Source: a virus. From it: 22,241 nucleotides of DNA. Of the stretch, positions 932-13,671 are shown one piece after another. Made by a program: the position numbers and the translations under genes. Within the stretch, counting starts at the first letter, position 1. Each line of letters starts with the position of its first letter. The DNA is taken from the UHGV virus genome UHGV-1381228; one strand, given 5' to 3'. The notes beneath the pieces were generated by a model, which saw only the letters and a list, made by a program, of their open reading frames with translations, was not told where the DNA came from and did not search any database.

Positions 932-3441
932 TGCGGAATATCTCCGGAGAATCTCTGACGCTTCTGTGTCAGATTAAGAACAACGGGAGAACCATCATCT
1001 TTCAGCAGATAACCAGTACCAAGTTTCACCAGGTACTGACTATCGCCGTAACTTTGCAAACCATACTGACCAGGCGGTGTTTTTATCCCGGAGCCGACAA
1101 CTTGTTCATTCCAAGCCTGATTAACCTGCTTATCGAATTGCTCTGCAGACATTCCCCACGGCAAAAGGACATTCCCCATTCCGTTATAGTCATGCACGCC
1201 ACCTGTAGCTACGTTAACAGCCTGTTTCCAGACATCATTGTCAATTTCGCCTGATACCACGCCTTTTTTCGCCATCACACCAGCGTAATAATCCTTTGCG
1301 ATCTCGTATGCCATTGATGCGCCCTGAGCGTCACCAGCAAATGCATCCTTCACCATGTCAGAAAACTCAAGGCGAAGATCAGCATCTTTAGGCATCGGAA
1401 TACCTTTCGCATCATCAGTACCTTTACGAGCCGCCGCGCCAGCAAGAATTGTCTGCGCAGCGGTTTCAGGAGACACGGAAACATCCGGATTAAACCAGTT
1501 TTTTTCTGCCAAAATACCACCAGGCTTATCCATCAGTATCCCGGCAACGGCAGCAGATGGAGCGTTGGCACTGATCTGCTGTAGTGCTGACATATACACC
1601 TGCCCACCACCAGTGCTCTGCCTGATGGTATCGAGATATGCTGCCTGTTGGGAAACTGGAGCATCACGAAAGAAAACACCGATCTGATTGGCCTCGTCTT
1701 TGGAAAAGAACGTCAGTGGAGTGCCATATGACTTAGCAAGGTCACTGACCTGAGCGGCACGCAAGGCAACGCTCTGTCCAAAGTTATCCTTATTGCTCAT
1801 GTCGATAGGCTTTGCCTGTCGGGAGGCAAGAGAGAACTGCACAGGATCCGACTGCCGCTGCTTTATCACCTGATTTGCAGCCGAAACAACGTTGTCATAA
1901 AGAGTTGCGCGTGCCGCATACCCCTCCCCTGTATCACCAGTATCCGGGCGTAATTGCTCAACATATGCTGTAATGCTGCTTGTCGGCATGTTGCGGAAAG
2001 AGCCTATATACTGTCCGGCGATCTGCGTATTCTTAAACTCGGTATATCGCAGGTTTCCTTCTCTGACTCCATAAGCTGCAATAAAATCATCCTCACCAGG
2101 TGGGTTAGGAAATTCAATGCCACGCATATACGCAGCCGTCGCATCGCGAACCCGGCTGTCGAGCATCGTTTTATATTCAGCCTGCTGTTGTCTGGCTAGT
2201 GCATCAGTCTGTCGCAACACGCTGGCCTGATCTGATTCACTTAAAGCATCGAACCAGGCTACACCGGTATAACGTTTATTTTTTGTCGGTAGCTGAGAAA
2301 GCCCCAGCGCAGCACTAACACCTGCAGTTAACTGCTGATCACTGTATGGCTGGCTACCGTTTTCATGATGGATAATGGCTGCACAAAGCGCCTTCAGGGT
2401 ATCAGGATTTGATGCATCGAGAGGCTCATCAGCAGAAACGCCAAGTTGTTCGCACACTGCTTTGATATACGACATAGTGTCATTTTTATCAGTAGGCGGT
2501 GCCCAGCGATTAATTATCTCGCTGACGGTATCAATACCCTGCCGCTGATACGACATCAGGTTCCGCCCTAATGCACGAATACCGTGTTCAGGGGTTTCGA
2601 ATTTGGCAAAGCGACCATCATCACCAGTCTGCCCAACCCACGGATTAGTTTTGCTGTATTCAAGATTGCCGGGGTTATTGTTGCGTATACCGCGGGTACG
2701 ATCGGAAGAGCCACTATCTGCTACAGCACGGCGAGAACCAGCAGCAGTATCGCTTAACTCGCCGTTTTGCTGTCTTACCTGAAGATAGTTTGCTCCAATA
2801 GCATTTTGAGCAGTTGCTTTTGCTGTTGCTTCTTTAAACTCGATTTTCTTGGCCTGGATTTGCTCGTCACTCCAGCCATGTGCAATGCCGTAATCCTCAA
2901 TTTGCTGGAAAGTTTGCTTATTAGCCAATACGTATGCGGCGTTGTCGCCATACAATGCTGCGGCATTTTTACCATTGTTCAGCAGCGTAGCCTGAAACTG
3001 GCCTTCTTCGTAGGCATTTATTTGCCCTATCTCGTGCCGCCCGGCCTGCGTAGTGAACTGAATGCGCTGCTGCTGCGCCTGCTGCATGAAAGCATTACGA
3101 GCCTGTTCATCCGGCAGCGACATAGCCAGTTGTTCGACCTGAGCATCAAACTGCTGCGTATACTCCTGACCTTTTCCAATAGCATTTTTCCCTTTCAGGT
3201 TAAGCAAACCTGTTTCAGGGTTATTCAGCAGATCGCTGCTTATCTGGCTTAAGCTAAGAGAAGCATCCTGAGCCATAGCAACATTCGCACGCTGTTTTGC
3301 CTGCGCAATAATACCTGCATATTGCTCTGCAACATCGCCAAGTACATCACCGACATTTGGTGTCTGAAACGATGAGAATCCCTGCGTCGAAATCCCTCTG
3401 CTCTGAACCTGACGGCCCGATGTTGTTGGTACAACTGGCAT
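928..3441 (-). CDS. large virion internal/ejection protein (837 aa) with a possible cell-wall hydrolase-like central region
   Basis: 837-aa ORF in the tail/internal-protein operon; central segment GIRNNNPGNLEYSKTNPWVGQTGDDGRFAKFETPEHGIRALGRNLMSYQRQG resembles motifs of virion-associated peptidoglycan hydrolase domains (recalled, not searched). Confidence 0.5.
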   Translation of the reverse strand: MPVVPTTSGRQVQSRGISTQGFSSFQTPNVGDVLGDVAEQYAGIIAQAKQRANVAMAQDASLSLSQISSDLLNNPETGLLNLKGKNAIGKGQEYTQQFDAQVEQLAMSLPDEQARNAFMQQAQQQRIQFTTQAGRHEIGQINAYEEGQFQATLLNNGKNAAALYGDNAAYVLANKQTFQQIEDYGIAHGWSDEQIQAKKIEFKEATAKATAQNAIGANYLQVRQQNGELSDTAAGSRRAVADSGSSDRTRGIRNNNPGNLEYSKTNPWVGQTGDDGRFAKFETPEHGIRALGRNLMSYQRQGIDTVSEIINRWAPPTDKNDTMSYIKAVCEQLGVSADEPLDASNPDTLKALCAAIIHHENGSQPYSDQQLTAGVSAALGLSQLPTKNKRYTGVAWFDALSESDQASVLRQTDALARQQQAEYKTMLDSRVRDATAAYMRGIEFPNPPGEDDFIAAYGVREGNLRYTEFKNTQIAGQYIGSFRNMPTSSITAYVEQLRPDTGDTGEGYAARATLYDNVVSAANQVIKQRQSDPVQFSLASRQAKPIDMSNKDNFGQSVALRAAQVSDLAKSYGTPLTFFSKDEANQIGVFFRDAPVSQQAAYLDTIRQSTGGGQVYMSALQQISANAPSAAVAGILMDKPGGILAEKNWFNPDVSVSPETAAQTILAGAAARKGTDDAKGIPMPKDADLRLEFSDMVKDAFAGDAQGASMAYEIAKDYYAGVMAKKGVVSGEIDNDVWKQAVNVATGGVHDYNGMGNVLLPWGMSAEQFDKQVNQAWNEQVVGSGIKTPPGQYGLQSYGDSQYLVKLGTGYLLKDDGSPVVLNLTQKRQRFSGDIPQ

Positions 3442-12427: not shown

Positions 12428-12634
12428 TTACTGACCAAGCAGCGTTTTACCGCTGGTATTAGCGGTTGATGTGTCGCCCTGAGAACCGGTAAGCAGCGTA
12501 GAACTACGACCAGCAGCAGCGCGACGGCGACGAGTTTCTTCGTCGCGGGCATCAACAACGGCGGCATCCTGCTCCTGTGGTGCTGCCTGAACTTCTGGTG
12601 TTGCAGGCACTGATGGTGAGCTACCCATGCACAT
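12428..12634 (-). CDS. small hydrophilic protein upstream of portal (68 aa), uncertain
   Basis: ATG preceded by GGAGTCATTGATATG, a near-copy of the portal ribosome-binding region (GGAGTCATTGAAATG); the product is low-complexity, so coding status is uncertain. Confidence 0.3.
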   Translation of the reverse strand: MCMGSSPSVPATPEVQAAPQEQDAAVVDARDEETRRRRAAAGRSSTLLTGSQGDTSTANTSGKTLLGQ

Positions 12635-12724
12635 ATCAATGACTCCGTACGCAATTAAATTATTACCAATTTAACCACATATGATTTATTTATCGTAGGT
12701 AGTTGACATTTAACGCACAAATTA

Positions 12725-12739
12725 TTACCTTTCAGGTAA
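12725..12739. repeat. palindrome TTACCT-TTC-AGGTAA (copy 3 of a recurring motif), about 20 bp downstream of a consensus TTGACA hexamer
   Basis: Perfect 6-bp arms with a 3-nt spacer; the same half-sites occur twice at 19919-19995; TTGACA at about 12703-12708. Confidence 0.5.
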
Positions 12740-13061
12740 CCAAAGAGTTCATTCCGGTTACTAACCTGACTGGCTTGTCGTTAAATTGAACAGGTGGAGT
12801 GAGCTTTTATTTTGAGCAGTACGGCGTATGGCACATGCGCCGATAGCGGTCTGGATACGTTTAAGGGGCACCCTCCCTTGCTCGGGCAAACGAACCAGGT
12901 AGCCGGAATGTGCAAGTCGAGCGGTTTTATTCCGCGCACGGGGATTCACCATCCCGGCGATTCGGTGTGACGCCTCGGAAGAGACGAGGGTACAACGATG
13001 AGAGCATTTATGGAGCCGCGACAAAGTGTGGCGCCTTAACAGGCTAAGTGCTCTCAGCGTT

Positions 13062-13138
13062 GTGGCATTAGCTCAGTTGGACAGAGCAACCGCCTTCTAA
13101 GCGGTTGGTCGCAGGTTCGAATCCTGCATGCCACGCCA
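13062..13138 (+). tRNA. tRNA-Arg (anticodon TCT, reads AGA), 77 nt including encoded CCA
   Basis: Cloverleaf read by hand: acceptor GTGGCAT/ATGCCAC, D-arm GCTC/GAGC, anticodon stem ACCGC/GCGGT with loop CTTCTAA, T-arm GCAGG-TTCGAAT-CCTGC, discriminator G then CCA. Confidence 0.9.
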
Positions 13139-13181
13139 GAATCACGCCTAAGGACCGTGATGCCAGAAGTTCCAGGTGCTT

Positions 13182-13223
13182 GGCGGTGATGGTTTCCCTT
13201 GAAGGACTATCACCGCCCTTTTT
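13182..13223 (+). terminator. intrinsic terminator-like hairpin downstream of the tRNA
   Basis: GGCGGTGAT ... ATCACCGCC 9-bp inverted repeat followed by CTTTTT. Confidence 0.5.
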
Positions 13224-13301
13224 ACAGCAGGACGCCATTGCGATGACTTCATGCTGTAAACCAGTACAGCCACGGAAGGCATAACTCATTGCTTCCAGTT
13301 C

Positions 13302-13326
13302 GCCCGGTTCGTCCGGGCATTTTTTT
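13302..13326 (+). terminator. strong intrinsic terminator (GCCCGG-TTCGT-CCGGGC then TTTTTT)
   Basis: Perfect 6-bp GC stem, 5-nt loop and T6 run; ends 1 nt before the AAGGTG Shine-Dalgarno of the plus-strand ORF. Confidence 0.6.
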
Positions 13327-13338
13327 AAGGTGAAAATC

Positions 13339-13671
13339 ATGAAAGAGAAGACTGCAGCTGAGCGCTATGCCGCAGCTATCAATGCCGCGATGGCGATTGT
13401 AAACCTGCGTGAAGAGATTAAAGATCTCCTTGCAATTATCCATAACAACCTGACATGTACAGAGTTGCTTGGCGGTCAGTACAACGGTGAGGCGGTGAAG
13501 GAGGCATTTAAAAATGCCGAGGTAGGAATAATTCCAGCAAACTATGTCAAGGCTGAATGTGTGCTCCTAAAGGCACGAGTGAGTCTGCATGAAGATCCTG
13601 GTAATCTCGGTCGAACTGCAATGCGTTACGTGATAGACGAGTCGAATGCCAAACACAATCTACCGAAATAA
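13339..13671 (+). CDS. hypothetical protein of unknown function (110 aa), opposite-strand moron-like gene
   Basis: Protein-like ORF on the plus strand between terL and the tRNA; ATG at 13339 with AAGGTG 6 nt upstream (the track start at 13330 is an upstream GTG); no recognisable domain. Confidence 0.55.
   Translation: MKEKTAAERYAAAINAAMAIVNLREEIKDLLAIIHNNLTCTELLGGQYNGEAVKEAFKNAEVGIIPANYVKAECVLLKARVSLHEDPGNLGRTAMRYVIDESNAKHNLPK

Follow-up and report, generated by a model that had tools for sequence, protein, structure and literature searches.

In phage lambda, nut sites combine a boxA (CGCUCUUA-like) with a boxB hairpin, GCCCU-GAAGA-AGGGC in nutL, which is bound by the N protein encoded just downstream. 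Phage T4 carries stable RNAs (species 1 and 2; rnaC and rnaD) in its tRNA cluster, which are co-transcribed with the tRNAs and released by tRNA processing. The ornate structured RNAs GOLLD and ROOL, of about 500-800 nucleotides (nt) and represented in Rfam, occur in phages and prophages, often near tRNA genes. In MALAT1/mascRNA a tRNA-like structure lies 3' of a long RNA; the RNase P cut sets the 3' end of the latter and a terminal structure protects it. A comparable tRNA-like case is that of plant GUT15 (PMC6152437), and the put RNA of phage HK022 acts without a dedicated phage protein (PMC9378689). Here we analyse an intergenic element of the virus genome UHGV-1381228, of which one strand of 22,241 nt (the window) was studied. 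An earlier reading of the letters alone, the original prediction, had marked positions 12780-13061, upstream of a tRNA-Arg gene, as a GC-rich region free of open reading frames (ORFs) that might encode a structured RNA or a decayed tRNA. We find that positions 12821-12991 of the plus strand are the core of a previously unannotated RNA family, shared by lambdoid, P1-like and epsilon15-like phages. Because its likenesses to put and nut, the T4 RNAs, MALAT1/mascRNA and GOLLD/ROOL stop short of the defining features of these systems, we rate it as new at the family level.

The core comprises the parts given below, where A1 is an alignment of six homologues found by BLAST, including those of P1 and Tyrion, and A2 an alignment of 37 homologues with pairwise identity below 95%.

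12821-12991, plus strand: family-defining RNA core of 171 nt, matched by covariance model R1
12822-12830 with 12834-12842, plus strand: helix Pa, loop GCA, nine pairs, 97% of cells paired
12849-12853 with 12896-12900, plus strand: helix P2, 100% paired
12898-12916, plus strand: junction block GGUAGCCGGAAUGUGCAAG, identical in all six A1 homologues, including P1 and Tyrion
12917-12939, plus strand: variable hairpin Pc, containing GCGG-TTTTATT-CCGC (12921-12935)
12941-12944 with 12952-12955, plus strand: helix Pd, loop UUCACCA, 99.3% paired, three of four pairs changed on both sides
12947-12950 (in the Pd loop) with 12964-12967, plus strand: pseudoknot PK, 100% paired
12973-12977 with 12985-12989, plus strand: helix Pe, CCUCG-GAAGAGA-CGAGG, with a conserved GRAG at the start of its loop

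Across the window the covariance model R1, built from A2, matches once, with 136 bits and E = 3e-39, at 12821-12991. The structure tested on A2 consists of five helices with 27 pairs, one of these helices being the pseudoknot. Standard pairs fill 97.9% of its 999 cells, against 27-54% once the partners are slid by 1-3 columns, and neither the covariation score nor the paired fraction was reached by any of 500 shuffles. Both sides change in 11 of the 27 pairs (77 cells), which is the covariation among related phages that the original prediction had named as a check. In Pa, whose tip UGGCACAUG is invariant, 20 sequences have G-C and 15 have A-U at the pair 12826/12838. P2 has double changes at two pairs (C-G in 25 sequences and U-A in 12; G-C in 33 and A-U in 4) beside two invariant G-U pairs, and the pseudoknot shows a compensatory change from C-G to A-U in four sequences (CACC/GGUG to AACC/GGUU). 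Both hairpins that had been picked out by eye are present: CCTCG-GAAGAGA-CGAGG (12973-12989) is the conserved helix Pe, in which three of five pairs are changed on both sides, for instance C-G in 25 sequences and G-C in 10, and GCGG-TTTTATT-CCGC is part of Pc, which differs in sequence and length among homologues, most of them being able to form a local hairpin there, some only weakly.

Five positions are G-U in many or all A2 sequences. Read from the opposite strand they would become A-C, which identifies the plus strand, the same as that of the tRNA, as the one that folds. By length, the cores of the 37 homologues are spread over the three residue classes modulo 3 (14/12/11), and every reading frame is closed in at least one homologue; hence the core is non-coding. 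Its conservation profile has a sharp 5' boundary at about 12820, and the blocks UGGCACAUG, AGCGGUC, GGUAGCCGGAAUGUGCAAG, ACCA, GGCG, GGUGUGAC and GGAAGAG are essentially invariant, the invariance of GGUAGCCGGAAUGUGCAAG in the IMG/VR set being by construction, as this block was the pattern by which that set was collected. The plus strand of the region folds at -99.2 kcal/mol (z = -2.95), with none of 200 shuffles as good. Given the covariation, the strand-specific G-U pairs and the conservation across unrelated phages, the structured RNA of the original prediction is borne out, and we regard it as practically certain that the element represents a genuine conserved family of structured non-coding RNAs.

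Three further contacts touch blocks that are invariant on both sides. Within P2 lies a variable extension (12854-12895) whose loop carries the conserved motif YCCUUG, the CUUG of which could pair with the invariant junction CAAG as a tertiary contact; because both sides are invariant, the alignment neither supports nor refutes it. The same applies to a candidate helix P3 (GCC 12902-12904 with GGC 12956-12958). A long-range pairing returned by RNAalifold, GCACAU (12831-12836) with AUGUGC (12908-12913), was not adopted, as it clashes with the covarying Pa and both its sides are invariant.

Other parts of the original prediction fared unevenly. The ORFs overlapping 12780-13061 are all short (45-87 amino acids), in keeping with its description as ORF-free. 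The GC content of the region (0.546; core 0.602; whole window 0.502) does exceed that of the upstream flank (0.350, 12640-12779), but is similar to that of the downstream flank (0.518-0.55). The 5' boundary moves from 12780 to about 12821, whereas the 3' boundary holds, at 13061-13064, touching or overlapping the first three bases of the tRNA. Just as no cloverleaf could be folded there by hand, ARAGORN and the Rfam tRNA model, run as had been proposed, call a single tRNA, the tRNA-Arg at 13062-13138, and nothing tRNA-like in 12780-13061.

Rfam 15 was searched with all its 4227 models, including riboswitches, ribozymes, 6S, RNase P RNA, Y RNA-like RNAs, GOLLD, ROOL and phage small RNAs. Over 12600-13350 no family matches within the core at the gathering threshold or at E<=10; two weak matches that touch it are on the minus strand, belong to eukaryotic families and have E >2, far below threshold. 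At six other loci, searched at E<=1, nothing falls on the element. No tmRNA is found by ARAGORN in the window or by Rfam at E<=10 over 12600-13350. A weak RyhB match at 13271-13326 (22 bits, E = 0.16, far below threshold) is explained by the second of the two terminators described below, and is therefore not called as a small RNA. The RefSeq and GenBank records inspected have over the core either no feature or a probably spurious hypothetical protein. In the searchable literature, queried by topic, by sequence string, for put RNA and for the P1 transcriptome, with older work in subscription journals lying outside the search, no description of the RNA was found; it is not mentioned in a preprint on the Pas small RNA or in one on the P1vir transcriptome, and of this region the genome paper of ZX5, a nearly identical phage, describes the tRNA alone. 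Few genetic systems are as well studied as P1, the lambdoid phages and the epsilon15-type phages, yet the core has stayed unannotated in their early control regions, and its recognition would correct several spurious 'hypothetical protein' annotations.

Set against the described systems, the core resembles HK022 put in position. Like put, it stands at the very start of the early (pL) transcript of lambdoid phages, upstream of terminators, and the first early genes of its carriers match no known N-type antiterminator family. However, put has about 70 nt in two stem-loops and comes as a left/right pair, whereas the core has 171 nt, with five helices and a pseudoknot, and is single copy in each phage. 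R1 has no match in the HK022 immunity region and the HK022 putL sequence is unrelated to the core; homology to put was thus rejected on sequence, size and architecture, although the position corresponds in the lambdoid relatives. With lambda nut the core shares a place just after pL and, in Pe, a 5-bp hairpin with a loop starting GAAGA as in nutL boxB, and in some relatives a perfect boxA stands beside it, the rrn boxB-boxA-boxC leader being compared along with nut. The Pe loop, however, has 7-8 nt, and nut sites are short linear or hairpin signals in contrast to the large fold of the core. A boxA within one mismatch is not found in the window and is absent from most loci, none of the downstream proteins scanned matches an antiterminator family, and Pe has no more than a resemblance to boxB; a lambda-type nut site was accordingly discarded. 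As with the T4 stable RNAs, we have here a phage RNA linked to tRNAs, whose release by tRNA processing may be supposed, but T4 is virulent while the phages carrying the core are temperate, and the core is tied to repressor-controlled early promoters, often without a tRNA; we know of no relation in sequence or structure between the two. MALAT1/mascRNA offers the likeness of a tRNA directly 3' of a structured RNA, with RNase P presumably processing the junction here too, though it is eukaryotic and ends in a triple helix, whereas in the phage RNA an ordinary long helix would give protection. GOLLD and ROOL are much larger, belong to other bacterial lineages and have no match to the element of the window.

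The family is widespread among temperate enterobacterial phages. The window itself is from an epsilon15-like (Uetakevirus) temperate coliphage, whose positions 12640-13340 are 98-99% identical to phiV10, vB_EcoP_ZX5, TL-2011b and many E. coli prophages. By BLAST, 12821-13065 is 72-83% identical to DNA in phages that are otherwise unrelated to it. In the lambdoid carriers, mEp460, cdtI, the Stx2a and Stx2c phages, 1720a-02 and mEp390, the core lies just downstream of cI on the same strand; P1, P7, D6, SJ46 and RCS47 carry it between trnI (tRNA-Ile2) and ban, the gene of a helicase; Tyrion, SPN1S and PAT1 are other carriers within Uetakevirus. BLAST matches were obtained in 86 phage and 590 plasmid records; the plasmids among the matches listed have about 75-145 kb and match in the same part of the element as phage P1. 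A search of higher sensitivity located the core in 1840 of 5426 complete E. coli genomes (about 34%), and in 59 of 60 sampled records no annotated feature lies under the match. Pattern scans recovered at least 120 IMG/VR contigs and 23 genuine matches in species-representative genomes, nearly all of them Enterobacteriaceae; the genome matches L138 and L152 were set aside as chance matches to the search pattern. The core is dispensable, for the close relatives Lys8385Vzw, SfIV and ST64B do without it. Since these relatives share the cassette, the terminators and the early genes, the core is an accessory, exchangeable module rather than a device that all such operons need. In epsilon15 itself (L001, about 2828-2890) only Pa and part of P2 are kept, a remnant that scores 37 bits with the covariance model; a deletion has taken the remainder of the core together with the tRNA and the 5' arm of terminator 1.

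In the window the core is set in a divergent intergenic region, at the other side of which a small leftward gene and the portal gene end at 12634. The surrounding features are:

12703-12739, plus strand: putative early promoter/operator, read from the sequence
12991-13064, plus strand: 3' domain of about 70 nt, from the predicted fold
13062-13138, plus strand: tRNA-Arg (anticodon UCU), CCA encoded, found by ARAGORN and by the Rfam tRNA model (73.3 bits)
13141-13161, plus strand: trailer hairpin AUCACG-CCUAAGGAC-CGUGAU, which also follows tRNA and tRNA-shaped cassettes in relatives
13182-13227, plus strand: intrinsic terminator 1, a 14-bp stem and then a U tract
13302-13328, plus strand: intrinsic terminator 2, directly before the ORF 13339-13671
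13339-13671: ORF of 110 amino acids, right after terminator 2

What the genomic contexts have in common is a repressor-controlled early transcript. Among 153 loci, 78 follow a same-strand cI-like repressor gene, 42 are epsilon15-like, 13 are of the P1 type and 20 are truncated or of other kinds; the orientation of the core is always that of the surrounding transcription unit, and no protein is common to the lambdoid, epsilon15-like and P1 contexts among the neighbours compared. In four immunity types, the repeats that make up the operators between cI and cro are found again just 5' of the core, where they surround promoter-like sequence: TTGC-N7-GCAA in mEp460, GTAGGATATCTTAC around a TTGACA box in mEp390, TGTTAGATTTTTCTAA in the L129 type, and those of L085 as the fourth. 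From this it follows that the pL transcript of lambdoid phages has the core as its first conserved element; with the core, at the place of nutL-N in lambda, a modular non-coding region begins. In P1 it belongs to the C1-repressed ban operon, 15 nt after trnI. In the window, TTGACA (12703-12708) and TACCTT (12726-12731) form a -35/-10-like pair (TTGACA-N17-TACCTT), which is overlapped by the palindrome TTACC-TTTCA-GGTAA (12725-12739), and the direct repeat AAATTATTACC occurs twice, 62 nt apart (12657-12667 and 12719-12729). By coordinates the palindrome maps to a site annotated as 'repressor' binding in the epsilon15 record, and it is likely to be the binding site of the phage repressor.

Downstream, the core runs into the 3' domain, whose closing helix (UACAACG.AUGAGAGCAUUU / AAGUGCUCUCAG.CGUUGUG) pairs 12991-12997 with 13058-13064 and 12999-13010 with 13045-13056 around a variable tip at about 13011-13044. 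Compensation in this helix is seen in L021 (CAAC-G/C-GUUG to CAAU-C/G-AUUG), L142 (AGCAUU/AGUGCU to AGUAUU/AGUACU) and L156 (GAGAGC/GCUCUC to GAUGGC/GUCAUC), and for each 5' arm the cognate 3' arm is the better partner, at a mean of -23.2 kcal/mol against -17.3 for the 3' arms from other members. The domain is present in most members but not in all, P1 being without it. In the window, G13062-G13064 are at once the last three bases of the closing helix and the first three of the tRNA acceptor stem. Of 125 loci, 42 have a same-strand tRNA next to the element, namely tRNA-Arg directly 3' in 25 and, in the P1 type, tRNA-Ile2 15 nt 5' in 17; the others have no tRNA within 800 nt.

The layout beyond the core is modular, with a variable cargo and then, usually, tandem terminators. 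The contents of the cargo slot include: 1) tRNA-Arg, which is the cargo of the copy in the window; 2) a tRNA-shaped RNA that is not a tRNA, so that the tRNA intuition of the original prediction, wrong for the core, finds an echo in many relatives; 3) a 63-amino-acid ORF (L066); 4) other RNA modules, as in mEp390; and 5) the 17-codon leader ORF of P1. Of 117 distinct loci, 103 have a conserved trailer hairpin and a plus-strand terminator after the element, and 61 have a tandem pair of terminators. In L029, L042 and L085 a terminator-type hairpin, annotated for the convergent gene, stands about 20-30 nt after the core, so that a short RNA of the core alone is possible there; that of L085 is the terminator of the convergent gene, with a tail that is weakly U-rich on the strand of the core. 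Taken together, these arrangements suggest that temperate phages have exchangeable RNA modules in their early-operon leaders, comparable to the 'morons' known for proteins.

As for function, we lean, tentatively and with somewhat less than even confidence, towards an accessory early-leader RNA that is freed as a stable species of about 240 nt by RNase P in the course of tRNA maturation and that acts on a host factor. On this reading 12821-13061 of the plus strand would be a non-coding RNA composed of the 171-nt pseudoknotted core and the 70-nt closing-helix domain, transcribed as a single precursor with tRNA-Arg(UCU) from the repressor-controlled promoter at about 12700-12740 and ending at the tandem terminators (13182-13328). 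Cleavage by RNase P between U13061 and G13062, the site that follows from established tRNA maturation, would mature the tRNA and simultaneously make the 3' end of the non-coding RNA, which would be recessed, as G13062-G13064 are shared by helix and tRNA. A helix of about 19 bp would enclose this end, and the RNA would therefore be expected to persist as a discrete and stable species. As a leader module exchanged among temperate enterobacterial phages it would work as RNA, in trans, and in the early lytic phase would expose the invariant nucleotides of its junctions and loops to a host factor; that this partner is a specific one is implied by about 60 unpaired nucleotides that do not vary. Release as a stable RNA is preferred because a tRNA may lie on one side or the other, because the 3' end would be protected, because some copies have a terminator-type hairpin close by, and because no conserved platform overlaps the core.

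Several observations weigh against this preference. In the sources searched, nothing was found on expression, processing or stability of the core RNA. A consensus scan called no sigma-70 promoter at about 12700-12740, so that the promoter and the transcription start are ones we infer. In P1 the core, without its 3' domain, runs straight into the ban leader, an arrangement that fits a cis-acting leader as well as a released RNA, and the approximately 60 conserved unpaired nucleotides would equally fit an element that binds a ligand or RNA polymerase. The host partner is a postulate of the model.

The position of the core in lambdoid phages, as the first conserved element after oL/pL where nutL or putL stand, suggests as the chief alternative a put-like processive antitermination, in which the nascent core would bind RNA polymerase and cause read-through of the tandem terminators without an N-type protein. 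We consider this unlikely, though it accords with the frequency of terminators behind the core, with the early genes lying on the same strand, with the lack of an antiterminator-family match among the downstream proteins scanned (four in mEp460, two in L085), with the resemblance of Pe to lambda nutL boxB, and with the hairpin and perfect rrn-type boxA that follow the core in L085, L029 and L042. Comparison gives a mixed picture of terminator resistance in cis, for Lys8385Vzw, SfIV and ST64B have the same cassette, two terminators and early genes but no core, so that read-through in these phages would be independent of it. Nor is there any sequence relation to HK022 putL; boxA-like motifs are weakly enriched and not general, being found, with one mismatch, on the plus strand of 76 of 134 loci against 47 on the minus strand and not at all in the window; the window has one small ORF beyond its terminators; and P1 has no terminator between core and ban. 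Less probable still is a cis-acting sensor, riboswitch-like or tRNA-sensing, whose ligand state would refold the 3' domain and so decide the fate of the downstream tRNA, cassette or mRNA. The highly conserved junctions and loops around the pseudoknot are aptamer-like and the 3' 'platforms' vary; the 3' strand of the closing helix, GUUGUG, and the 5' acceptor strand of the tRNA or cassette can be one and the same, which makes the two structures mutually exclusive; and a ribosome-binding site comes about 20-60 nt after the core in P1 and L066. Yet neither a terminator nor a ribosome-binding site overlaps the core in a conserved way, the first terminator stem of the window starting about 190 nt after it, and there is no Rfam riboswitch match and no candidate ligand in view.

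Explanations that dispense with a functional RNA agree far less well with the alignments. A signal at the DNA level, be it a protein-binding site, a single-stranded initiation site or an ops-like loading site for an elongation factor, seems to us very improbable. The RfaH ops motif is GGCGGTAGCGTG, and its centre GGTAGC is contained in the invariant 19-mer; also, the P1 element lies just upstream of a helicase gene, ban. But compensatory pairing over 27 pairs, including the pseudoknot, and strand-specific G-U pairs are the pattern to which selection on a folded transcript leads, and the element always follows the orientation of its transcription unit. The decayed tRNA of the original prediction, or a functionless leader carried along with the tRNA-Arg gene, is hardly credible: the element does abut the tRNA in the window, and T-arm-like fragments occur in the variable tips of some relatives, but no tRNA or tmRNA model matches at E<=10, the fold is a pseudoknotted multi-helix one and not a cloverleaf, and neutral decay could not have left P1, lambdoid and epsilon15-like phages with 72-83% identity and invariant blocks in common. 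To see the element as incidental to phage tRNA clusters is off the mark as well: about two-thirds of the loci are without an adjacent tRNA, and the common factor is a repressor-controlled early promoter upstream. We give practically no credence to a small protein gene, for which an 87-amino-acid antisense ORF (12761-13024) and a 52-amino-acid ORF (12812-12970) could be adduced, along with the hypothetical proteins annotated over homologous DNA in some records; the lengths of the core in all classes modulo 3 and the absence of a frame open in all 37 homologues speak against it, and the substitutions are those of compensatory base pairing and not of synonymous change.

Beyond the released leader RNA that we prefer, a broader and doubtful conjecture is that the core and the frequent tRNA-shaped RNA together form an RNA-only device for host takeover in temperate enterobacterial phages, working without a phage protein; its target would be RNA polymerase and termination factors, or else a tRNA-directed defence or processing enzyme. 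If true, such a device would have been hidden in plain sight in P1 and the lambdoid phages. Any of these functions, whether stable decoy RNA, RNA polymerase modifier or sensor, is open to test in P1, mEp460 and phiV10/ZX5.

The tRNA-shaped RNA of the tRNA-Arg slot constitutes a second unannotated structured family, seen in L002 (3239-3372), L158 (2171-2305), L157 (2171-2297) and L161 (about 5585-5462, minus strand), and no Rfam family matches it. A long stem, GUUGUGGUGA/UCACCACAAC, closes the fold, which further comprises a variable insert of 30-130 nt and two hairpins, 5' GCGC-AGGCUGAU-GCGC and 3' GCCGG-AGAUCAGCA-CCGGY, the stems of which both covary. The two conserved loops complement each other (GCUGAU and AUCAGC), a hint of a kissing contact like that of the tRNA elbow. 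This RNA also occurs without the core, between pL and the two terminators: directly after pL in Lys8385Vzw, and further downstream in SfIV and ST64B. T-arm-like pieces (GGUUCGAUUCC, GGUUCAAUUCC), found in the variable tips or the cargo slot of L005, L009, L073, L100 and L133, look like remnants of tRNA genes.

Right after the core, a hairpin and a perfect rrn-type boxA (UGCUCUUUAACAA or AGCUCUUUAACAA) are present in L085 (about 3340-3385), L029 and L042, and the same combination stands about 100 nt downstream of pL in SfIV (L157, about 1340-1378), which is without the core; it may be an antitermination signal for Nus factors. Between core and ban in P1 (L004, about 2715-2775) there is a 17-codon ORF (MPIISDIQHAWVEC...) with its own AGGAG ribosome-binding site; it ends in TAATG, overlapping the start codon of ban, and this suggests that ban is translationally coupled to a leader peptide. 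The 63-amino-acid ORF of L066, also with a ribosome-binding site, lies about 30-220 nt after the core and before the terminator, and has no PHROG match. Three annotated 'hypothetical proteins' lie over RNA modules, mEp460_037 (L002 2943-3311), mEp390_036 (L127 2511-2753) and Tyrion gp54 (L006 2211-2372); they are probably not genes, one of them being on the strand opposite to the RNA. Finally, the antirepressor regions of mEp460 (L002 706-907) and cdtI (L003 777-978) match the Rfam families C4 antisense RNA, isrK and c4-a1b1, and this region is a P1-type immI module residing in lambdoid phages.

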